Below are positions 1,062 to 18,353 of a stretch of 20,000 nt of DNA, in pieces. Positions within the stretch are counted from its first letter, which is position 1. Each line of letters opens with the position of its first letter. A program made the translations under genes and the position numbers. Source of the stretch: an uncultured virus (IMG/VR IMGVR_UViG_3300017528_000566) (lineage: Duplodnaviria > Heunggongvirae > Uroviricota > Caudoviricetes); the IMG/VR virus record IMGVR_UViG_3300017528_000566. The stretch is one strand, 5' to 3'. The notes under the pieces were generated by a model. That model searched no databases and had not been told where the DNA came from. It worked only from the letters and a program-made list of their open reading frames with translations.

Positions 1062-1269
1062 TCGTGGTGTGGGCGCTCGAACTTCGGTGGAGCCAAGACC
1101 CTGTTGATGGCGTTCCCGGCAGGCGTCGGACCCACCTGCACCCTCCAGTTGCCACACCGGGCGCGTGATCCCGGATCCGGATTCGGAGCTTTGCCTTGAA
1201 GTTTTGGGTTCCTGACGTGTCTTGGGGCCAGAACCCCCGGATAACGGGCAACGGAAAGCAGTGAATCAG

Positions 1270-2178
1270 ATGGCAACCAAGAGTCAGGCACCCAAGCGCA
1301 GCAAGCTCGCGATCGATGAGAAGCGCGGTACGCCAACCTTCATGGTCGACCCGCACAAGCTCATCATCGTGGGCTTCGATACGAAGCACAAAAAGGGTGA
1401 ACACCCGCTCTGGCAGGAGCGCGCTCTTGAGGAAGTAGACGAAAACCTGGCCCGGAATATCGCCACGGTCGGCTTCCAAAGTGTCATCCAGGTGCGTGTC
1501 GATGGCACCAAGTACGAAGTTGTCGCTGGCCGTCGACGCGTGAAGGCGGCTCGCCTCGCAAACCAGATGCGTGAGAAACTGGCGAAGGATTCCGGTGACG
1601 CGTTCATCCCGGTCAAGGTGGAATGCAAGATCGTCAGGGGCACTGACCTCCAGCATGTCGGCATGATGATCAGCGAGAACGCGAATCGTAAGGATGTCGC
1701 GCCGCTCCAGATGGCCGAAGATATCCAGGGGTTTCTGAACCTCGGGGCCTCTGAAGAGATGGCAGCTTCAGCGGCGGGTAAGACCGTTCCCCAAATGAAA
1801 CTCTTCCTGAAGCTGCTCGACTTGGACTCCAAGGTGCAAGCGGCGGTGCGCAAGGGCGAGATCTCGGTCAAGGCAGCGATTCAACTCGCGGCGCTGGGTC
1901 GGGAAGAACAGGTGGTTGAGCTCGCGAAAATCGAGGCCGGTGAGGCCGGCGCCACGGTCGCCGACGTTGAAGCGGCGGTGAAATCCAAGCGCACGGGTGA
2001 GGAGGTTTCTAAGGCTCCTGGTAAACGCCTGGTCAACAAGCTCTTGGAGAGCGACGACGGCAAGCGCGTACTGAGCGCCGCCGACAGTGTCCATGTGGTG
2101 CGGTGGATGATCGGCGAGCTGCCGGCACGCAACATCAAGGGGCTGGTTGATGCAATCCGGCTCGTCTCGGGTGGGTAA
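1270..2178 (+). CDS. ParB/RepB/Spo0J-family protein
   Basis: 'LARNIATVGFQSVIQVR..YEVVAGRRRVKAA' (GxRRxxA arginine patch) and 'ISENANRKDVAPLQMA' followed by an HTH-like region. Start placed at ATG 1270; GTG 1261 is possible. Confidence 0.85.
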   Translation: MATKSQAPKRSKLAIDEKRGTPTFMVDPHKLIIVGFDTKHKKGEHPLWQERALEEVDENLARNIATVGFQSVIQVRVDGTKYEVVAGRRRVKAARLANQMREKLAKDSGDAFIPVKVECKIVRGTDLQHVGMMISENANRKDVAPLQMAEDIQGFLNLGASEEMAASAAGKTVPQMKLFLKLLDLDSKVQAAVRKGEISVKAAIQLAALGREEQVVELAKIEAGEAGATVADVEAAVKSKRTGEEVSKAPGKRLVNKLLESDDGKRVLSAADSVHVVRWMIGELPARNIKGLVDAIRLVSGG

Positions 2179-5784: not shown

Positions 5785-6171
5785 GGTACCGAATAAGGGC
5801 GTGAACGGTACCAAAGAAGGGGCAGTTACCGGTACCAACGGTACCGCAGGGAGCGAATAACCACATGTCGGATGAGTACCGGAAGCTACTAGATGAGATC
5901 AGGCCCCGTGCCATAAACGATGACGCGGAGTACCAGCGAGCGAAGGCCGAAGTGAGCCGTCTGGTCGCCCTGCACGCCGCCCAGGGCGATGCCATCAACG
6001 AGATGATCGCTCTGCTATCGACGCTTCTCATGGCGTACGAGCTGGAGCAGAAATGGGAGCGTGAGCGAGACAGCGCCGAGCTCATTCAGGAGCGGTGACC
6101 CCGCGCCTTTGGTACCAATCGAAACCGCCCCAGTCAGCCTTGTGGGCCAACCGGGGCGAGGTATTGGTACC
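5785..6171. repeat. Cluster of six GGTACC palindromes flanking the small HigA-like gene
   Basis: GGTACC at 5785, 5807, 5831, 5840, 6111 (within TTGGTACCAA) and 6166. Confidence 0.7.
5865..6098 (+). CDS. Protein resembling the N-terminal domain of HigA antitoxins, with no HTH
   Basis: 'PRAINDDAEYQRAKAEVSRLV...EMIALLSTLLMAYE' resembles the P-x-x-I-x-x-x-x-E-Y-x-x-A ... L-L-x-x-L-x-x-x-Y-E HigA N-terminus; the ORF ends where the XRE HTH would begin. GGGAG RBS. Confidence 0.6.
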   Translation: MSDEYRKLLDEIRPRAINDDAEYQRAKAEVSRLVALHAAQGDAINEMIALLSTLLMAYELEQKWERERDSAELIQER

Positions 6172-6284
6172 GGCCCGGAGCGGATCGAAGGCCAAATTCT
6201 GACCGTCGGCTCAGTCTGACCAAGGCCTTTTCAGACGGCCCACCTGTCGCCCAGGCGTCCCCATCCGATTACTGAACGCCAAGG

Positions 6285-6615: not shown

Positions 6616-7965
6616 ATGCAGCAAACACAGCCGAGCACCTCGAAAACCAACACAGGCCACAAGCCCGCTACTGGCACCGCCGAATGGCTCCCAAGTAGGG
6701 GCGGTCGGTACGTCGCGCGTATCAGCGTTCCCGGTGCAGCGGGTCGGGTACGGGAGGAGATGCTGGACGAGAACGGCGCCCCCCTTTTCACCAATAAGGA
6801 GCGGGACTGGGACGCCGCCAAAAAGTGGGCGAGCAGCTATTCGACGTCTGTGCGTGACCCTGCAGTACCGACGGCAGAGCGGCTGCGCCACCAAGTTAAG
6901 GTCAGGGCGTGGGGTGAGGAATGGACTTCCGGCAGCCTGTTCAAAAAGTACGGTGAGGTGAAACGGCTCAAGATCAAGAAGTCTGCCGGTGACGATGTGC
7001 GCCGGCTTGACCAGCATGTTTACCCATACCTGGGCGAGATGTCGGTCGCGGGCGTGCAAGACCAGGACGTTGAAACCGCCTTTGCCAAGGCATGGGAAGC
7101 GTACGAAAAACGCTACGGAGAGCCGCCGTCGCAGGGCACTAAACGACAGGTATACATGGTCACACATCGGCTATTCGACCTGGCAATCCGCCCCGGACGC
7201 TTGCGCGAAGACAACCCTGTTACCGATGACCTATTGCCCGCCAAGGGGTCACCAAAACTCTACAGCTATCTGTACCCGAGCGAGCTATTGGCACTCTTGA
7301 AGTGCGTCGATATCCCGATAGAGCGTCGCGTCTACTACGGAATCGCGACGTATACGGGGCTGCGCAAAAGCTCGATTCGGGTCAACGCTCGCGCTCGCAA
7401 TGACAACGCCATAAAACTTGAGAGCTACCTTTGGTCGTCCATTGACCTGGATAACTCGACGATCCTAAGCCTTGTAAACAAGAACGACGTACCGCAGATG
7501 TTTGCGCAAAACGATGCTGATCTTCCGGGTATTGGTTCGTTGATTCAGTTGCTTCGTCGCTGGCGAGAGTATTGCGGTTGGCCGCCTGACGATTCACCCG
7601 TGGTCAAAACCCTCCATTGCAAAAAGAAAGCAGAAGCCGAAACGCTTCGGAAAGACCTGCTCTGCGCTGGCGTGACCCGCGGAATCCTCTTCAACAACAC
7701 CGACAAGATCCAAGCGCTTCGCTTTCACGACCTGCGTGCCACGTTCGTGACTTGGGCCAAGCGCGCCGGGAAAGGGGACGGCTGGATTGCCGATCGAACC
7801 GGCCACATCACAAAAGAGGTCATGGACCGGTACAATCGAGCGGCACGAAACCTCGCCGATTTGCGTCTCGACCCTGGCCCGTTCCCGGACATCTCGCTCG
7901 CAATCCCCGAGCTCGCGGCGATCGACCTGTCGCAGTTGTCGGGGACAAGGCGCTACGCACGGTAG
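6616..7965 (+). CDS. int: Tyrosine recombinase / phage integrase
   Basis: Catalytic motifs TGLRKSS (R), FHDLRATF (HxxR), RTGH and MDRY (Y); N-terminal arm-binding-like 'GRYVARISVPG'; core-binding 'LDQHVYPYLGEMSVAGV'. Confidence 0.93.
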   Translation: MQQTQPSTSKTNTGHKPATGTAEWLPSRGGRYVARISVPGAAGRVREEMLDENGAPLFTNKERDWDAAKKWASSYSTSVRDPAVPTAERLRHQVKVRAWGEEWTSGSLFKKYGEVKRLKIKKSAGDDVRRLDQHVYPYLGEMSVAGVQDQDVETAFAKAWEAYEKRYGEPPSQGTKRQVYMVTHRLFDLAIRPGRLREDNPVTDDLLPAKGSPKLYSYLYPSELLALLKCVDIPIERRVYYGIATYTGLRKSSIRVNARARNDNAIKLESYLWSSIDLDNSTILSLVNKNDVPQMFAQNDADLPGIGSLIQLLRRWREYCGWPPDDSPVVKTLHCKKKAEAETLRKDLLCAGVTRGILFNNTDKIQALRFHDLRATFVTWAKRAGKGDGWIADRTGHITKEVMDRYNRAARNLADLRLDPGPFPDISLAIPELAAIDLSQLSGTRRYAR

Positions 7966-8270
7966 CCGTTGCGGCGCAATGCGCGTTGCACTGACGCCTC
8001 GATGTCGGTCGGAGGTGTTTCGGTCTTAGGCTCCACGTTCTTCGGGGTAATGCCCTTGCGTGCCAGAAACTTATCCAGCTCCGAACGCTTCATTAAGAGC
8101 CGTCGGCCGACGCGGCTAACCTCGCATTCGCCGCGTTCGGCCGCTGCGACGATGCGGCGCCACGGATATGGGTCCCTCCGTATGTTGACCCAGTCGTCGT
8201 TCCCGCTTGGACTCCCGCGCTCGACTAATAGGGTCAAGAACTCACGTAGTGTCAGGTCAAGAGGGTCCAC
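7953..8270 (-). CDS. Excisionase-like winged-helix DNA-binding protein
   Basis: 'IVAAAERGECEVSRVGRRLLMKRSELDKFL' resembles HTH_17/Xis; convergent with int and overlapping its stop; GTG 8270 preceded by GAGG and the CGGTGTA motif. Confidence 0.65.
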   Translation of the reverse strand: MDPLDLTLREFLTLLVERGSPSGNDDWVNIRRDPYPWRRIVAAAERGECEVSRVGRRLLMKRSELDKFLARKGITPKNVEPKTETPPTDIEASVQRALRRNGYRA

Positions 8271-8279
8271 CCTCGCCTC

Positions 8280-8286
8280 TACACCG
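8280..8286 (-). promoter_or_regulatory. CGGTGTA motif
   Basis: About 10 nt upstream of GTG 8270. Confidence 0.5.
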
Positions 8287-8555
8287 GACACAGCATCAGC
8301 AACGGGGGATTTGACACCGCAAAATCGGTCTCCCGCAGAGCACCAACCAGCACTCACCCCACGGGTCAACCAGCATAGTGAGGCGGATGGACGGCCATTT
8401 AATCGCGATACCGCCGCAGCTTTCGAGCTCGATGAAGGGCATGTGGGAGCATCGGTCAGGTACCGCTTGGTTGCCCCGTTTCAGCTTGCTCTATCAAAAT
8501 AACGTGCGAATTTACCAACAGTGCGTCGCTGTTTGACGCACCAAGGAGTAGTGCA

Positions 8556-12315: not shown

Positions 12316-12642
12316 TCAGGCCCGGTGGTCTCGCAAAGTGAGGGGAAGTCGCGCAACCAAGTTCTTACCCTGCGGACCCATGGCGATCGCGGTCAGCTCA
12401 TTGCCCCGGTCTGGCTCTCGAAACCGTGCAACCTGGATCCATTTTCGCTCGGCGGTACACGCGAGGTTCTCGAGCTCGGCCTCGGTCGGGACAGACAGCA
12501 ACGCCACGGTATTAGAGCTTGAGTGCCATTCACTGGCGATCTACGAGAAGCGAAACGCGAACTCCAGCGCAGCGTGGCAGCTTTGGACCGCCTGCTGTCC
12601 GGGGCTCAAGTCTTGGCGAGTAACGATGTAGAGCTTATCCAT
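12316..12642 (-). CDS. Pth2-like peptidyl-tRNA hydrolase with an in-frame TAG at codon 34 (readthrough candidate or pseudogene)
   Basis: MDKLYIVTRQDLSPGQQAVQSCHAALEFAFRFS-TAG(12543-12541)-IASEWHSSSNTVALLSVPTEAELENL..FREPDRGNELTAIAMGP..LPL. PTH2-fold motifs lie on both sides of the stop in one frame; the ATG overlaps the HD gene end. Confidence 0.8.
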
Positions 12643-13210
12643 GGCTGGGTTCTCCGAATAGATGGCGGCAAATCGCCTTGCCTCGACGGTTGATCTGCCC
12701 CCATTTGATTTTGAACGAGACAGAATCTAGGCCACCAAACATCCGCGCGTTCGAGTGGACCTCGGATAATCCGGCCAGCAAAAGGGTGATCGCTTCAGGG
12801 TTGAGGCAGAACCCCGGCACCTCATCTGCCTTCATCGTGTGAACCAGCATATCCATGCGCATCAGCTTCGAAGCTTCCTGGCTGCCACCGACCGACAACC
12901 AAGTCCTGCACGACATCTCTGCGTGGTCCGGGAACTTCCGCACCCCGTCCGGCACACAGTAAGGTTTGCCGCAATCATGAAACAGCGTGTATTCCGCGAT
13001 GACCGAGATGGGCATGACCGACAACTTGAGTTGGAGGCGGTACACGCGAAGCCAATCGGGCAGGACCCACGCTCCGTGAAGCTCCCCGGTATCTAGGTAA
13101 ACCAAGAGCTGAAGCATGTGGTCGCGGACAGATTCACCGTGAGCGTAGACAGATTGCCCTTCGCTCTGCTGACAGGCATGCATGGCTTCAATGAGGTCAA
13201 TCTACGTCAT
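12635..13210 (-). CDS. HD-domain phosphohydrolase with an in-frame TAG at codon 3
   Basis: GAGG RBS, then ATG ACG TAG(13204-13202) ATT GAC CTC ATT GAA GCC ATG CAT..., in frame with the track ORF 13183-12635. Motifs HGESV, FHDCGKPYC, FPDHAEMS, MDMLVH. Confidence 0.75.
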
Positions 13211-13529
13211 GGCGCTTTTCCTCGAACAAAAACTCGGCTGGAATGATCCCATACGAAGAGTGCAGGCAGCGCCGCTCGATCTCATGCCGCACGAAACGCC
13301 GTCGATATCGGAGAGCATCGATTGCCGATGTGTAGAGGTCGACCAAGCGCTCTGGGTCCTCCAAAGATCTCAACCAGACTTCGTACTCGGGCGCCCCGCC
13401 GAAACCGCCTGGCTTCTCGGCAGACAGAAGTCGGCCAAAGATGCCTTTGCGCTTGAACGGCTGCGATTCGAACACAAGGCGCTTCAAATGATGGTTTTCT
13501 TCCCGCAGCCGGGTCAGTTCGTCAGACAT
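13197..13529 (-). CDS. Hypothetical protein (110 aa)
   Basis: GGAGGG RBS before ATG 13529; overlaps both neighbours; TGA stop. Confidence 0.7.
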   Translation of the reverse strand: MSDELTRLREENHHLKRLVFESQPFKRKGIFGRLLSAEKPGGFGGAPEYEVWLRSLEDPERLVDLYTSAIDALRYRRRFVRHEIERRCLHSSYGIIPAEFLFEEKRHDVD

Positions 13530-14617
13530 TCCGCCCTCCACGGCCGCGTGATCTGTGCCAGGAGTGGCGGTGTCAGCAGTGACTTCGCGTACTCGAATGC
13601 CTCTCGCATCCCCTCTACCGAGTGCTCGAAGAATTTCGCGTCATGGGTCTTGCCGTTCAGGAAGATCGACAACTTGACCGGTCCCGTGTTGACCGCCCAG
13701 TCCAGGTCGACCGTAAAGCGCTCGCCCTTCTTGATGATGCGGCGGCACCAGCGACTTTCCTCACCGGTGAAGTCCGGGCACCACCCCTTGAACGTGACGC
13801 CAACGCCCTCGTTATCTTCCGGGCTGAAGCTCGGGTCCTTCAGCTGCTGCTTGAATTCGAGGTACAGCGGGTCAGTTTTCCGGAACTCCTTGCGCCATGC
13901 CTCATACTTGCGGTTGCCCTCAGCTCGCTTGACGCGTCGCTCGCACTCCGCCTCGGATACCCACACGGATACGAACTGGAGCTCGCTTTGGTGTCGACGG
14001 TACGTGCGGATCGCGGCGCAACTGCGTTGCTCGGCGGGCGTATGCTCGTCGACATCCTCTGCTTCAGGCTCGGGCTCGTAGCAGCGAATCAAGCCGTCGC
14101 TTGAGATCTCCGGCCACCGGCCCTCCGCGAACACACCTTCAAACTCCAGCGCTGGCCAACCTCCCATCGGGTCTGAAAAATCGTAGAACCGATATTCGAA
14201 CGGAGCGGCCCAGATGCACCCGTCTACGATCAGGATCTGGGATTGAGCGTCGAACCGATGGTCGACCCAGCAAAAGCCCCATCCCTGCTCCGCTTCATCA
14301 GGCAGGTAGTCACGCCGCTTTCCAGTGTCGAGCTCGACCACCGTTTGTCCCTGGTAGTCCTCGCCTCCAACGAAGTAGTGGTGACCGTTGGGATGGTCCT
14401 CGATGAACGTGTATTCGAAGCTGCTGTAGTTGCGGCGGACGTCAGCGATGGGTACGTCCGAGCCGACCTTGAACACGAGCCCCTGCGTATAGTTCCAGCT
14501 GCCTTCTTTGGTCGCGTACGGCGTGATCACGACCTTGTACTCGCCAGAATCCGACAGGTACTCGCGGCGGCATTTGAGATTGGCGTTCTCAGGCGTGAAA
14601 AAATCGAGGTCGGTCAC
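13514..14617 (-). CDS. Hypothetical beta-rich protein (367 aa)
   Basis: GTGA overlap with the upstream stop; aromatic motifs YQGQTVVELDTG, WGFCW, DGCIWAAPFEYRFYDFSDP; TGA stop. Confidence 0.8.
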   Translation of the reverse strand: MTDLDFFTPENANLKCRREYLSDSGEYKVVITPYATKEGSWNYTQGLVFKVGSDVPIADVRRNYSSFEYTFIEDHPNGHHYFVGGEDYQGQTVVELDTGKRRDYLPDEAEQGWGFCWVDHRFDAQSQILIVDGCIWAAPFEYRFYDFSDPMGGWPALEFEGVFAEGRWPEISSDGLIRCYEPEPEAEDVDEHTPAEQRSCAAIRTYRRHQSELQFVSVWVSEAECERRVKRAEGNRKYEAWRKEFRKTDPLYLEFKQQLKDPSFSPEDNEGVGVTFKGWCPDFTGEESRWCRRIIKKGERFTVDLDWAVNTGPVKLSIFLNGKTHDAKFFEHSVEGMREAFEYAKSLLTPPLLAQITRPWRAECLTN

Positions 14618-14973
14618 GCGGCCACCTCTGCTTTCGCAGCGACCACGGGAGCTTTAGCGTCCAACCACGCGGCAATGGCGTCCTTGGTTAGCCCGAACCC
14701 GCGCTGCTCGGCCATCCGATGCATGCCGTTCGAGATCCACCAATCGTGGTTGGGATCGTGCTTGGCCTCTACCACAAACCGAGGGACACCGCGCAGCATC
14801 GCGTAAATGAGCAGCAAGCACCGGGTGGTGTTGCCCTCTCCACGCTTGTCTTGCCAGGCTTGCCAGCGGTCCATGCCACTCGACGCATGGATGCGCTTGC
14901 GGATTTCGCGGCTAGCCGTCTCTCGTGATCGTATCTCTTGCTTCAGTTCTGGGTATCTACTCTTCTTGCTCAT
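14614..14973 (-). CDS. Hypothetical basic helical protein, first gene after the leader
   Basis: AGGAG SD at 14985-14981, 7 nt before the ATG; 'RCLLLIYAMLRGVP'; TGA stop. Confidence 0.8.
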   Translation of the reverse strand: MSKKSRYPELKQEIRSRETASREIRKRIHASSGMDRWQAWQDKRGEGNTTRCLLLIYAMLRGVPRFVVEAKHDPNHDWWISNGMHRMAEQRGFGLTKDAIAAWLDAKAPVVAAKAEVAA

Positions 14974-14982
14974 GACATATCT

Positions 14983-15021
14983 CCTGTGACGTTGGGGTGT
15001 TGCGAGTTACACCGCCACAGG
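14983..15021 (-). promoter_or_regulatory. SD-sequestering hairpin, putative translational attenuator
   Basis: mRNA CCUGUGGC (15021-15014) pairs with GUCACAGG (14990-14983, which includes AGG of the SD); inner GGUGU (15013-15009) pairs with ACACC (15000-14996). Confidence 0.65.
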
Positions 15022-15075
15022 GGGGCCACGAGCGAGGGGATAGAAGATCTACCAGAGGTGTCCGATTATCGGCAT
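15007..15075 (-). CDS. Leader peptide MPIIGHLW-(TAG)-IFYPLARGPPVAV with an RGPP arrest motif downstream of an amber codon
   Basis: ATG CCG ATA ATC GGA CAC CTC TGG TAG ATC TTC TAT CCC CTC GCT CGT GGC CCC CCT GTG GCG GTG TAA. TAG at 15051-15049; RGPP codons at 15030-15019. GGTGTA motif at 15104-15099 upstream. Confidence 0.65.
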
Positions 15076-15095
15076 GTTGAGGAACCTAACCAGCT

Positions 15096-16352
15096 CTATA
15101 CACCTGTCAAGAGATCTGAGCGCACAAAGTCAGGGACTGGCAATAAGTCTCTGTACCGAGCGCGAGTACTATCCTCAGACCAATCCCCCAACGTCCCCTC
15201 ATCTCCTGTTGACGCGACGTACGTACGCCTCGACGGGACTGCTTGGGGGTTTTCAACATCAACGATGACTGTGCGACGCTGCTGGCCAGAACCACGTGGC
15301 GCACACACGGAAATGAGCTCGTCGCTGATCACGTAAATAGCAGTCGCGTCCATCCGGCGAGCTAAATCTCGAAGAGCAGTTCGAACCCAATCGTCGCCTT
15401 TCCTGCCGAGTTCGGTGGGTGTAGCAAACGCAAACTGCCCTTTGCCCTGCAGGAAAGCGCCCCCGAAGCCCGCGGGTTCATCTGGTTCCGGCTGCAAGTT
15501 CCGCGCTGCTTCCAGCACGACCTCATCAGTGAGTTTTGGTCCGGAGTGTTCCCAGCTCTTCACCTTCAAACGCCCATTGATGATTAGCGCATCCCCATCC
15601 CCATCCCTATCCACGTGAGCTATCGGCTTCCAGGCCATCTGGTCCTGTCGATCAGATTCGGCCTTAGAAGCCGCGCTATCCCCGATCGTGGGCACGAGCC
15701 GCCTGCCCATCACCACTGCGAGCACCATGGCGTCAATTGGTGGCTTGAGCCCCGAGAGCTTATGAATCTCAGCCGCTATGTACTGGGCTACAGCCGACGT
15801 GCTGAGGTGTTTGGGAGGCTTGGTGAGTAGGTGCGTCCGTACAGGACGCGCCCCTTGAGCAACCGCCAGTGATAGGACGTGCGCCTGCGTGGCGATCACC
15901 ATCGCACGAGGCATAGCTGCATCAGTACCGGCGCCACTCTCGATTGCTGCCCGTAACGCTCGTACAAACATCAGCACAAATGTGCGCGAGCTGCTCTTCT
16001 CCGATACCCGTTGGCGATAGTCGTAAAAGACACTAGCTTCCCTCTCAGAAGCGTTTACCTCTGCGAAGACCGCTCGAACGCCATCCTCAGAGAGTGCCGG
16101 CTCGCCGCGATTGCCCACTTGGAGCTCACCGTCCCCAAAACACAGAAAGCGTTTTGAGACATGCAGCCCGTTGGCTAGCTCACCCAGCTCTATGAGCGTC
16201 GGAACATCCAAAAAATTCTCGAAGTGCCCAAGGGTCTCAGACGACATGTGGGCCGCGGCGGCGAAACTCTCGCGGGTGTGGCCTGCCTGCGAATACAAGC
16301 CAGTGATCCGTTCCGGCATCGTTAGCCAAGGGATGGCCCGTTCCTCACTCAT
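15096..16352 (-). CDS. XRE-family HTH protein with a long C-terminal region of unknown function
   Basis: GGAGG RBS; 'ERITGLYSQAGHTRESFAAAAHMSSETLGHFEN..PTLIELGELANGLHVSKRFLCFG' matches the Cro/C1-type HTH pattern. Confidence 0.75.
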   Translation of the reverse strand: MSEERAIPWLTMPERITGLYSQAGHTRESFAAAAHMSSETLGHFENFLDVPTLIELGELANGLHVSKRFLCFGDGELQVGNRGEPALSEDGVRAVFAEVNASEREASVFYDYRQRVSEKSSSRTFVLMFVRALRAAIESGAGTDAAMPRAMVIATQAHVLSLAVAQGARPVRTHLLTKPPKHLSTSAVAQYIAAEIHKLSGLKPPIDAMVLAVVMGRRLVPTIGDSAASKAESDRQDQMAWKPIAHVDRDGDGDALIINGRLKVKSWEHSGPKLTDEVVLEAARNLQPEPDEPAGFGGAFLQGKGQFAFATPTELGRKGDDWVRTALRDLARRMDATAIYVISDELISVCAPRGSGQQRRTVIVDVENPQAVPSRRTYVASTGDEGTLGDWSEDSTRARYRDLLPVPDFVRSDLLTGV

Positions 16353-16457
16353 GACGCCTCCGACTTATGTTTGCCCGATATCCTACACGGGCCAACGCTC
16401 GAGCAGCAAGCGAGGACTCTCCAACGGCCTACCACTTAGGCCAGGCGGAGCATTCGT

Positions 16458-16805
16458 TCACCACTCACCATCGTCATCATCCCGTTCATGCCGTGAGCGT
16501 CGCCGCTTACTAGCGTAGCGATCGAACTTCGTAGGCTGCGCATCCGGCCATTCCTGCCTCGCGTCATACTTGGAGGCTCGCCGTTCTTCTTGGCGGGGTG
16601 CCGGGCTGTAGCGGTCTGCGACCCTCTGCACAATAGGCTGCTGATCTTGCCTTGAGGGTGCGCTCGCCTTCCTAGTATCCCGGCACTGTTTGCACCGAAC
16701 CGGGGGTGTGAACTGGCGCTCTGCGAAGAACTTCTGCTCACCTGCTGTAAATGAAAACCCGCGCTTACAGTCGCGACAGGTCTTATCCTCGTCCTGGTAA
16801 TCCAC
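16458..16805 (-). CDS. Zinc-ribbon domain protein (zf-trcl-like) with a disordered tail
   Basis: 'YQDEDKTCRDCKRGFSFTAGEQKFFAERQFTPPVRCKQCR'. Confidence 0.85.
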   Translation of the reverse strand: MDYQDEDKTCRDCKRGFSFTAGEQKFFAERQFTPPVRCKQCRDTRKASAPSRQDQQPIVQRVADRYSPAPRQEERRASKYDARQEWPDAQPTKFDRYASKRRRSRHERDDDDGEW

Positions 16806-16829
16806 TATCTCTACTTGTCCTCTTTCTAG

Positions 16830-17252
16830 TCATGGCCTCATCTTGCCGAGCCTGGCCGCTTGCTCACGCGAATCTCCCCGCCCTCGCGGACGTCTAGTGT
16901 TTGCTCGCGTATATGGCTGGGTCCCGGAAGCCGGGACCGTCACTGTATTGACTCTGTACTTAGGGCCTTGGGGCAACTCTGGTTCAAGACCAGCGCCGAC
17001 TTGCCGGGCATCGAGCCACTTCATAGCTCTCACCAATAGAGAGAAGATCTGCGCCTTGTCCGAACCCTCCCCGCTGTGGTCCGGGTGATATTCCAGCGCC
17101 AACTCCCTAAAGCGTTTCCGCGTCCTTGCTTTGAACTTCTTGAGCAGGTCCTCTGCATCCGGCGCCCGCTCAATCTCAATCAACTCTTGAGTGGTGATGC
17201 CGAGCATCTGGTGTGCTAGGTAGCGTTCGGACGGCGAGAGTGGCAGAGCCAT
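16830..17252 (-). CDS. J-domain (DnaJ-like) co-chaperone
   Basis: 'RKRFRELALEYHPDHSG..AQIFSLLVRAM' with an intact HPD motif. Confidence 0.8.
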   Translation of the reverse strand: MALPLSPSERYLAHQMLGITTQELIEIERAPDAEDLLKKFKARTRKRFRELALEYHPDHSGEGSDKAQIFSLLVRAMKWLDARQVGAGLEPELPQGPKYRVNTVTVPASGTQPYTRANTRRPRGRGDSREQAARLGKMRP

Positions 17253-17306: not shown

Positions 17307-17891
17307 CTAGACGAACCGATCCCGCTTACCCCACAGCGCCAGTTGCACCGTGGCGCGCTGCAGAGCCCCCTCACTCGCAACCCTACTCATAGGCAGGCTA
17401 AGCGGAAACTTTACAACTAGGCGGCCAACCCCTCGATTACTCCCCCACAACAGGAGCTCATGCGCAGGCCAGGAAATCTCCGGGATGTCCGCCTCAAATA
17501 GGGTGTCTGGGTCCTTCGCGTACGCGAGCGTCACGTGCGGTTTGTAGACGGGGAACTTGTTGTTGTACTCGATCCCGGCCTCGTCCATCGCTTGGCGGAG
17601 GGCCTGTTGGAAAGCGTGGAGCTCGGGGGACCGCACTTTTGCGATCACGGGGACACCATCCTTACCCGCTGGAAAGGTGGTGATCAGATCTGTCGAGACC
17701 GAAAACGGCATGGTCTTGGACGTCACCTCATAGAGGACCGGCAATAGCTGCCCGATGCGCTCGATTGGGGTATCATCCCCGAGATACACGACGGTGATAT
17801 GAAGATGGGCGCGCTCTGGCTTACCAGGCACAGGGAGTTCTCCGAGTACCCGTGAGGTTTCTTCTGGGACAGTAAACATAAGCGCGGCCAT
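17307..17891 (-). CDS. 2H phosphoesterase (2'-5' RNA ligase/ThpR-like family)
   Basis: Two HxT motifs: LHITVVYLG and YKPHVTLAY; AGGAG RBS. Confidence 0.88.
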   Translation of the reverse strand: MAALMFTVPEETSRVLGELPVPGKPERAHLHITVVYLGDDTPIERIGQLLPVLYEVTSKTMPFSVSTDLITTFPAGKDGVPVIAKVRSPELHAFQQALRQAMDEAGIEYNNKFPVYKPHVTLAYAKDPDTLFEADIPEISWPAHELLLWGSNRGVGRLVVKFPLSLPMSRVASEGALQRATVQLALWGKRDRFV

Positions 17892-18353
17892 CTATGGGGC
17901 TCCTATTTCAACATTGGGCAACAGACGATCGGTCATCCACGGCGGCAAGAGGTCATCGGCGGCGAAGCCGAATGACACCCAATAGGCGGGCTCGTTTTGC
18001 AACTGAAGCACGCGACTCATCATCGTGAGTGTCTTGAATAGGACGGTATAGCCATAGATTAACTCCTTGGCTCGTTTGGGGTACTTCTTACACCCCTCGA
18101 AGGTGGCCATGGCCGTGGCCTCGCACTGCTGAAGCAACCAAGCCTCGTGACCGTGGGGAACCAGCAAGAGGACCCGTTCGGTATCCCTGCCTGACATCAA
18201 GGCCGTGATGATCACAGCTTCGGCACGTACAGGGCAGGCGTTGCGATCCGAGAATCCTCTAAACTTTGGCCATCTAGTATACAGCCTTTCCTGATCTTCT
18301 TGGGGGGCTCGGCCTAGGATGCGCTGATGCGCTTCTGCCAAAGGCATGGACAT
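17892..18353 (-). CDS. Hypothetical protein
   Basis: ATG 18353, about 10 nt downstream of the CGGTGTA motif; its TAG directly abuts the next ATG in frame. Confidence 0.65.
   Translation of the reverse strand: MSMPLAEAHQRILGRAPQEDQERLYTRWPKFRGFSDRNACPVRAEAVIITALMSGRDTERVLLLVPHGHEAWLLQQCEATAMATFEGCKKYPKRAKELIYGYTVLFKTLTMMSRVLQLQNEPAYWVSFGFAADDLLPPWMTDRLLPNVEIGAP

Follow-up and report, generated by a model that had tools for sequence, protein, structure and literature searches.

We analyzed a 20,000-nucleotide (nt) stretch of DNA, hereafter the window, from an uncultured virus of the Caudoviricetes (IMG/VR record IMGVR_UViG_3300017528_000566). It contains a short conserved leader ahead of an operon, and our interpretation is that this leader probably controls translation of the operon through an arrest peptide that is guarded by an amber codon. 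The genes around the leader all lie on the minus strand, and feature coordinates given below refer to that strand unless another is named. The leader sits in a 122-nt gap between a 418-amino-acid (aa) open reading frame (ORF; 16352-15096, with its TAG at 15098-15096) and the start, at 14973, of a gene for a 119-aa protein (14614-14973), which is the first gene of the operon and the candidate target of regulation.

Read from an ATG at 15075, the leader continues CCG ATA ATC GGA CAC CTC TGG TAG, with the TAG at 15051-15049, and then, in the same frame, ATC TTC TAT CCC CTC GCT CGT GGC CCC CCT GTG GCG GTG TAA, with the TAA at 15009-15007. It translates as MPIIGHLW*IFYPLARGPPVAV*, the frame past the TAG being IFYPLARGPPVAV, exactly as an earlier reading of this DNA made from its letters (the sequence-only reading) had given it, coordinates included. 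The mini-ORF, MPIIGHLW with its amber stop (15049-15075), has no upstream Shine-Dalgarno (SD) sequence. Beyond the TAG lie an in-frame spacer, IFYPLA (15031-15048), the tetrapeptide RGPP (CGT GGC CCC CCT, 15019-15030), and a tail of VAV plus the TAA (15007-15018) that is not conserved. RGPP is a candidate arrest motif, and the predicted arrest state has the Pro codon at 15024-15022 in the ribosomal P site and the Pro codon at 15021-15019 in the A site.

Conservation of the leader in related loci

The 119-aa protein belongs to a family of 20 proteins. DNA was compared for seven loci, one of which (L004) was left out because its contig begins inside the gene. The resulting six leaders represent five lineages: the window, L002, L003, L001 (contig G001), L005 and L007 (contig G002). 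The 119-aa protein of L002 is the same as that of the window, and identity to the window is 84% in L003, 64% in L001, 50% in L005 and about 45% in L007.

The whole module is found in 6/6 loci that cover the region upstream of a 119-aa homolog, always in the order TTGAC[AT], −10 element, ATG, mini-ORF with TAG, spacer, CG[TC] GGC CCN CC[TC] (RGPP), hairpin, AGGAG and start codon. The motif M-[PQ]-I-x-G-H-L-W-TAG-AT[CT] is present in every one of the six leaders, and RGPP is likewise kept in all of them. Leader identity to the window in four relatives is 86, 70, 70 and 70%, compared to 83, 68, 53 and 58% for the first 300 nt of the gene in the same four relatives and 43-48% for the 100 nt further upstream of the leader. 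By this comparison of sequences, conservation of the leader equals or exceeds that of the coding sequence. Loci differ in what lies upstream (in the window the 418-aa ORF, in L001 a zf_Tbcl-like gene), and the module therefore goes with the gene downstream of it. No family matches the 418-aa ORF, which is absent at the corresponding position in L001, L003 and L005.

The window sequence occurs in soil and rhizosphere runs, with no RNA run among those listed as containing it, and contigs from four of the runs were compared. Among contigs of three other such runs, two that span the leader carry it unchanged, and the contig of the third (covering 14969-15160) has a single spacer difference, at position 15044. 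The L002 leader differs from that of the window by one extra C. It falls in the C run of the Pro codons (L002 535-541), which has seven C there and six in the window; RGPP is kept and the frame behind it shifts. Contigs from three other runs carry the six-C form.

A pattern scan of viral_contigs with TGGTAGAT-N9-24-CGNGGCCCNCC returned 30 loci, two of which, those of G001 and G002, were judged real. The other 28 were judged by eye from their flanks to be chance matches in coding DNA; in L041, the only one checked in detail, the 'MSKK' gene is unrelated and the match lies within an open frame. A wider protein-profile scan of viral_contigs found no relatives beyond G001 and G002, and the corresponding scan of genome_contigs gave two 23-residue matches that we do not regard as relatives. 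Among INPHARED phages, neither megablast of 13000-17000 nor tblastn of the 119-aa and 418-aa proteins returned a match.

Promoter and predicted start of the leader mRNA

A sigma-70-like promoter precedes the mini-ORF. Its −35 hexamer, TTGACA (15105-15110), is followed 16 nt later by a −10 hexamer, TAGGTT (15083-15088). All five lineages have TTGAC[AT] between diverging flanks; three lineages have TAGGTT as the −10, one has TATATT and one TACCTT, and the spacing between the two elements is 16-17 nt in all five. A program scan of the window for promoters did not list this one, because its −10 matches only 3/6 bases. The last codons of the 418-aa ORF (15096-16352, minus strand) overlap the −35 hexamer and the spacer of this promoter.

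Because only 6-9 nt, without an SD, separate the −10 from the mini-ORF AUG in the six leaders, we infer that the leader mRNA is leaderless or nearly so, with the AUG at or near +1. No terminator-like site was found at the leader, where the hairpin is followed by AGAUAUGUCAUG and no U run. An Rfam cmscan of the window (E ≤ 1) returned only a chance match to SrbA (6019-6211) and placed the leader in no curated family.

A predicted two-layer fold over the start of the 119-aa gene

RNAfold predicts a two-layer structure, with an inner hairpin over the SD of the 119-aa gene (AGGAG, 14981-14985) and an outer helix, GCUCGUGGC/GUCAUGAGC, that buries its start codon. The 5′ arm of the inner hairpin, CCUGUGGC-GGUGU (15009-15021), forms the anti-SD side and appears in both the minimum free energy and the centroid structure. 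The 3′ arm (14983-15000) is made up of ACACC (15000-14996), a bulge (CCAAC) and GUCACAGG (14990-14983). The sequence-only reading had proposed that the second Pro codon (15021-15019) opens the arm CCUGUGGC, which pairs with ACACC and GUCACAGG and covers the AGG of AGGAG, and the computed fold agrees. The outer helix is an addition, having no mention in that reading: its 5′ strand, GCUCGUGGC (15025-15033), runs through the Ala-Arg-Gly codons and pairs with the 3′ strand, GUCAUGAGC (14968-14976), which includes the start codon (14973-14971).

In the window, the stretch from the mini-ORF AUG to position +15 of the gene folds at −41.3 kcal/mol (z = −3.20; 0/200 dinucleotide shuffles fold as well), and stretches of 146 nt and 66 nt have z-scores of about −2.1 to −2.2. 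The hairpin is predicted in all five folded lineages, with leader z-scores of −3.20 (window), −2.10, −2.48, −1.32 (L005) and −4.27. Covariation among homologous leaders, which the sequence-only reading had named as a check on the hairpin, is present. Across 19 pairs of the leader alignment (A3), 91.2% of 114 cells are paired, compared to 30-43% when the partners are slid, and four pairs are changed on both sides, a number reached by 9/500 shuffles. For the nine pairs of the outer helix, 92.6% of cells are paired and three pairs are changed on both sides. The lower stem of the inner hairpin is kept in 5/6 leaders; in L005 it is replaced by GGUUGC/GCAACU and CUCCU/AGGAG, giving the same shape. 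The upper stem shows a G-C to C-G swap in L001 and L007.

We then masked ribosome footprints in the fold and read the unpaired probabilities of the SD and AUG of the 119-aa gene in the six leaders. When the ribosome is masked at the TAG (Trp8 in the P site), the hairpin is predicted to stay at −28 to −40 kcal/mol, with unpaired probabilities of 0-0.31 for the AUG and 0-0.27 for the SD. When it is masked at RGP-P, where Pro18 occupies the P site, the structure that remains is predicted at just −0.6 to −4.3 kcal/mol, and the unpaired probabilities rise to 0.47-0.65 for the SD and 0.49-0.83 for the AUG. This pattern, closed at the TAG and with SD and AUG about half or more unpaired at RGP-P, recurs in 6/6 leaders. 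The masked folds are thus consistent with the earlier proposal that a ribosome terminating at the amber would leave the hairpin closed, whereas one arrested at RGPP would sit on the 5′ arm and free the SD. In each of the six leaders, the SD lies 39-44 nt beyond the P site, far enough that it would stay clear of an arrested ribosome.

The reading frame across the amber codon

Third codon positions account for 6/9 variable columns of the 30-nt mini-ORF block (for example, Ile ATA/ATC/ATT and His CAC/CAT) and for 3/3 variable columns of the RGPP block, or 9/12 for the two blocks together (binomial P = 0.0039). The spacers between TAG and RGPP in the five lineages measure 18, 18, 21, 12 and 15 nt, each divisible by 3, and in 6/6 leaders RGPP shares the frame of the mini-ORF. 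As the spacer frame contains no canonical start codon, a ribosome could translate RGPP only by starting at the mini-ORF AUG and passing the TAG. The substitution pattern of the mini-ORF and RGPP therefore appears coding-like in one shared frame that crosses the TAG.

Behind RGPP the frame is free. An early stop closes it in the window and L003, and in L001 it overlaps the gene start as AUGA. The frames of L002 and L005 enter the gene in a different phase, and that of L007 joins the gene in phase. Judged from these alignments, such freedom is what arrest at RGPP predicts, and not what a normal coding ORF would.

Amber decoding in the phage group

The two large related contigs, G001 (203 kb) and G002 (208 kb), have exactly one tRNA gene each, and in both the anticodon is CUA. 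Both tRNA(CUA) genes reach 51-52 bits on RF00005, have an anticodon loop of the canonical 7 nt, and lie on the operon strand downstream of the leader: at c[45239-45313] in G001 (L012), 6.4 kb away, and at [134711-134783] in G002 (L011), 5.2 kb away. By eye, the two tRNAs disagree at the majority of stem positions, which would fit replacement or rapid divergence of the suppressor at an unchanged place.

A second conserved amber codon lies in the operon itself. The gene for a Pth2-type peptidyl-tRNA hydrolase (12316-12642) has an in-frame TAG at 12543-12541, and its PF01981 match (E 5.1e-11, residues 3-99) spans this TAG, at codon 34, which indicates that TAG is decoded in this phage group. The TAG is kept in three of four relatives (the window, L003 and G001), and GAG (Glu) stands opposite it in G002, a weak hint to the inserted amino acid; the tRNA also has features that may be Glu-like. 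A purine follows the TAG in all three (TAG ATC / TAG GTC / TAG GTN), and suppression favors a 3′ purine. Once the TAG frame is required to score best, the Pth2 TAG is the sole robust in-frame TAG; the leader TAG is the only other conserved in-frame TAG found.

ORFs of at least 150 aa cover 0.88-0.91 of G001 and G002 under the standard code. Global recoding (code 15-like) was rejected on this coding density, the single robust in-frame TAG, and a share of 13-22% TAG among the stops of conserved ORFs. The sequence-only reading had taken the efficiency of termination as the input of the leader. We keep its proposal of gating by the stop codon and refine the likely input from termination efficiency in general to a phage-encoded amber suppressor tRNA, on the basis of the tRNA(CUA) genes in both large related contigs and the Pth2 in-frame TAG.

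In the available parts of a preprint on stop-codon-recoded phages (bioRxiv 10.1101/2021.08.26.457843), a phage tRNA(CUA) and in-frame TAGs are proposed to act as a post-transcriptional timer. A phage-encoded tRNA(CUA) is present in the relatives G001 and G002, and none was found in the window. The recoded phages, as far as that source describes them, are gut phages of low GC content in which many late genes are recoded and TAG stops are depleted, whereas our contigs have 56-59% GC and use TAG as a common stop; only two conserved in-frame TAGs were found, one of them in the leader.

RGPP and known arrest systems

The accessible sections of one report (PMC12992588) describe RGPP as the most robust arrest among RAPP-like cores in various N-terminal contexts, as not relieved by elongation factor P (EF-P), as the most avoided tetrapeptide in many bacterial phyla, and as enriched near the C-terminus of small upstream ORFs (uORFs). 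In RAPP arrest, according to the accessible sections of another (PMC10951233), RAP occupies the P site and the A-site Pro-tRNA is unable to attack; a minimal RxPP is enough, and the arrest is modulated by N-terminal residues and can be specific to particular species.

The leader shares two features with this class. An R-[AG]-P-P core lies near the end of a small ORF: in the window, three codons separate RGPP from the TAA. The sole start codon available to RGPP shares its frame and lies on the other side of the TAG. The ORF is upstream of the gene on the same strand, and the gene start is predicted to be hidden in a structure that overlaps the arrest site. By its sequence, the arrest core belongs to the RAPP/RGPP class. 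As far as ApdA, ApdP, ApcA and the RAPP/RGPP uORFs of Streptomyces lividans are described in the sections cited (PMC12992588, PMC10951233), the leader resembles them in its R-x-P-P core near the end of a small upstream ORF, in lying on the strand of the regulated gene, and in its expected arrest state, in which RxP occupies the P site and Pro-tRNA the A site. It differs in belonging to a phage, in the length of its ORF (19-22 codons), in having RGPP reachable only through an in-frame TAG, and in being carried by a probably leaderless mRNA. Unlike SecM, MifM, VemP and ApdA/P, it is not a monitoring substrate of Sec or YidC, because it has no signal peptide and the downstream gene is unrelated; the peptide is 22 codons in all. 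Release by force is not possible for this leader, since an ORF of 19-22 codons has no room for a signal peptide or membrane anchor.

In ermC, a ribosome arrested on the leader occupies the helix strand that hides the downstream ribosome-binding site. The same arrangement is described for secM-secA in the accessible sections of PMC10951233. The sequence-only reading had likened the phage leader to both, and the likeness holds for the output side, where an arrested ribosome on one helix strand would free the downstream ribosome-binding site. The input differs, being an upstream stop codon read as sense and not secretion force or an antibiotic. Competition at a stop codon sets the expression level of prfB (RF2) as well, by a +1 frameshift within the gene itself, without an arrest peptide and without a hairpin over a downstream SD; the phage leader would have these two elements.

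Two further systems combine stop codons with arrest. PepNL of Escherichia coli arrests at its UGA by blocking RF2, and read-through by Trp-tRNA cancels the arrest, in the account given in the available part of PMC11890864. Both leader peptides would have stop-codon read-through as the regulatory variable; in the phage leader, as compared with that account, read-through would cause the arrest, and further downstream. In mammalian AMD1, stop read-through is followed by a stall at a second stop 384 nt away, which limits expression of the same gene, as reported in the available part of PMC13025110. The phage leader resembles the C-terminal tail of AMD1, so described, in joining read-through to a stall on a conserved downstream peptide, and differs in that its stall would open a downstream start site, whereas AMD1 is eukaryotic and none is opened there. 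The literature searched yielded no description of a natural leader whose arrest motif is gated by an amber codon, in a phage that has a single suppressor tRNA.

Proposed mechanism and alternative explanations

We propose, with a probability of roughly 0.6, that the leader is an amber-suppression-gated translational attenuator of a jumbo-phage operon, with RGPP as its arrest peptide. Every element of the logic set out in the sequence-only reading has support from the comparisons or from published work. The sigma-70-like promoter would give an mRNA that starts no more than a few bases from the mini-ORF AUG, and ribosomes would translate MPIIGHLW. In the OFF state, release factor 1 (RF1) would terminate at the TAG and the ribosome would leave 18 nt before the structure, with the hairpin closed over the SD and AUG. 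In the ON state, the TAG would be decoded, most likely by the phage tRNA(CUA), and the ribosome would translate six further codons and arrest between the two Pro of RGPP, where it would cover both 5′ arms and open the SD and AUG of the 119-aa gene. Arrest at RGPP lasts long and resists EF-P, and a single rare read-through could therefore allow many rounds of initiation. Among the genes under this control would be that of the Pth2 hydrolase, itself dependent on TAG decoding. By analogy with PepNL as described in part of PMC11890864, the invariant GHLW-TAG-A may influence whether RF1 or the tRNA prevails at the stop. A more far-reaching proposal, for and against which we see the balance as even, is that a standard-code jumbo phage uses its single amber-suppressor tRNA as a developmental signal, read by a leaderless amber-guarded RGPP sensor that latches an operon with Pth2 open. 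On this proposal, the leader would be the first natural riboregulator with a suppressor tRNA as, in effect, its ligand.

Several observations weigh against amber-gated arrest. With only five lineages, the frame and wobble statistics are modest (P 0.004-0.04; spacers about 1/27), and the z-score of L005 is low in magnitude, at −1.32. All 12 RGPP bases lie within or beside stems, and the wobble base of the Arg codon covaries with the initial base of the start codon (U-A in most leaders, C-G in L007, which has a GUG start). The RGPP bases are anti-AUG and anti-SD strands, so RNA pairing could explain part of their conservation, and pairing alone could keep them. The invariant GHLW stands at a variable distance from RGPP, for which the arrest model gives no explanation. 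TAG is an ordinary stop in 26/116 conserved ORFs of G001, 14/107 of G002 and 3/14 of the window, and the ORF just upstream of the leader also ends in TAG; any suppression would thus have to be incomplete or confined to certain times. Searches of the 20-kb window for tRNAs, Rfam cmscan included, found none, and the spot syntenic to the G001 tRNA (1015-1221) holds at most a doubtful remnant. The arrest of an 18-19-residue chain in the host is a prediction, and RAPP arrest can be species-specific according to part of PMC10951233.

The role of pairing leads to the view that the hairpin is a plain repressor, opened by a protein, a small RNA, temperature or upstream translation, and that RGPP is never translated, its bases being kept as anti-SD and anti-AUG strands. 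The position of the RGPP bases in or next to stems and the covariation of the Arg wobble base with the start codon fit this view, as does CCUCCU, which is an anti-SD sequence; six-frame RGPP is also not rare in this GC-rich DNA (18 in G001, 30 in G002 and 4 in the window), and the window has no tRNA. We nonetheless consider such an RNA-only operator unlikely: it does not predict four spacer lengths that are all multiples of 3 together with RGPP in frame in 6/6 leaders, it gives no reason for RGPP to survive 1-nt shifts relative to the hairpin in L002 and L007, and it has no role for a single CUA tRNA or for the Pth2 TAG. These last two also bear on the version of the sequence-only reading, which keeps the architecture and the arrest and takes as input the termination efficiency of the host, through RF1 level or activity or near-cognate read-through, with no phage suppressor tRNA. 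That the CUA tRNA is the only tRNA of both large relatives and lies near the locus, and that a conserved TAG inside the catalytic domain of Pth2 needs efficient decoding and not rare leakage, makes this version quite unlikely, even though the window has no tRNA and the invariant GHLW-TAG-A could tune RF1, with the nascent peptide of PepNL, in the available part of PMC11890864, as a precedent for blocking a release factor and for read-through as input.

The mini-ORF might instead act at its own stop, with MxIxGHLW either stalling there or feeding terminating ribosomes downstream, and with RGPP irrelevant. TnaC is a termination-arrest leader of this kind. No part of the leader is more invariant than GHLW-TAG-AT[CT], which stands at varying distances from RGPP, and PepNL again offers a precedent in the available part of PMC11890864. 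In the masking model, however, a ribosome at the TAG stops short of the hairpin, with SD and AUG predicted to stay paired in 6/6 leaders, and the in-frame RGPP is left unexplained; we regard action at the stop as very unlikely. That the leader has no regulatory function, and is a chance ORF and hairpin in an intergenic spacer, is scarcely credible to us. The single-sequence z-scores of the window are moderate (−2.1 to −3.2), but in relatives with 70% identity in the leader, the gene reaches 53-68% and the upstream DNA 43-48%, compensatory pairs are present, and the module travels with the gene despite a differing upstream neighbor.

Known arrest-peptide attenuators sense secretion force, antibiotics or metabolites, and phage suppressor tRNAs have been proposed to time late genes via many recoded codons. 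If amber-gated arrest, the reading we prefer, is true, the leader would join arrest attenuation and suppressor-tRNA timing in their smallest form, one amber before the strongest known arrest motif, and would turn a low-frequency decoding event into a long-lived open ribosome-binding site. It would also provide a directly testable case in which a cell or virus senses its own genetic-code state, a reason for standard-code phages to keep a lone suppressor tRNA, and a compact synthetic-circuit part reporting amber suppression.

The operon and its genome context

The 119-aa protein has no Pfam or PHROG match. Its AlphaFold2 (AF2) model is all-helical with a predicted local distance difference test (pLDDT) score of 88; a Foldseek search with this model gave no match in the PDB at E ≤ 0.001 and nothing usable in the Atlas. 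At the C-termini of the family (14614-14640 in the window, alignment A2), most members end in AEVAA and a few in RGAA. We take this Ala-Ala end to resemble ssrA-type degradation tags, which would presumably suit a short-lived regulator.

The 119-aa gene overlaps the next gene by 4 nt, and a tight co-directional string follows on the minus strand, comprising ORFs of 367 aa (14617-13514), 114 aa (13541-13197) and 182 aa (13183-12635), Pth2 (12642-12316) and an ORF of 363 aa (12274-11183). The content of the window is phage-like, with phrog_2087, phrog_14850, a LigT/2H phosphoesterase, a DnaJ-domain protein, a zf_Tbcl protein and a deoxynucleoside monophosphate (dNMP) kinase. The cluster of the 119-aa protein is recorded from a contig of up to 433,843 bp.

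In G001, the tRNA(CUA) gene lies just upstream of a ParB-like gene, and the window has a ParB-like gene at 1222-2178 (plus strand). The adjoining 1015-1221 has a weak likeness to the 3′ half of the G001 tRNA, with the anticodon arm missing. Between this spot and the operon lies an integrase-like ORF (6616-7965, plus strand), which matches PF00589 at 23.7 bits, below the cut-off. Extension of this ORF through its TAG into 7969-8502 was rejected as a read-through product, because the extension is of low complexity and without a domain.

The 2H phosphoesterase (2_5_RNA_ligase2 / LigT; 17307-17891, minus strand) also passes the Pfam cut-off of anti-CBASS Acb1 (29.6 vs 27 bits). Its in-frame ATG is directly abutted by the TAG (17892-17894, minus strand) of a 160-aa ORF, an arrangement that is kept in L003. 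Amber suppression at 17892-17894 would fuse the product of the 160-aa ORF with the LigT protein.

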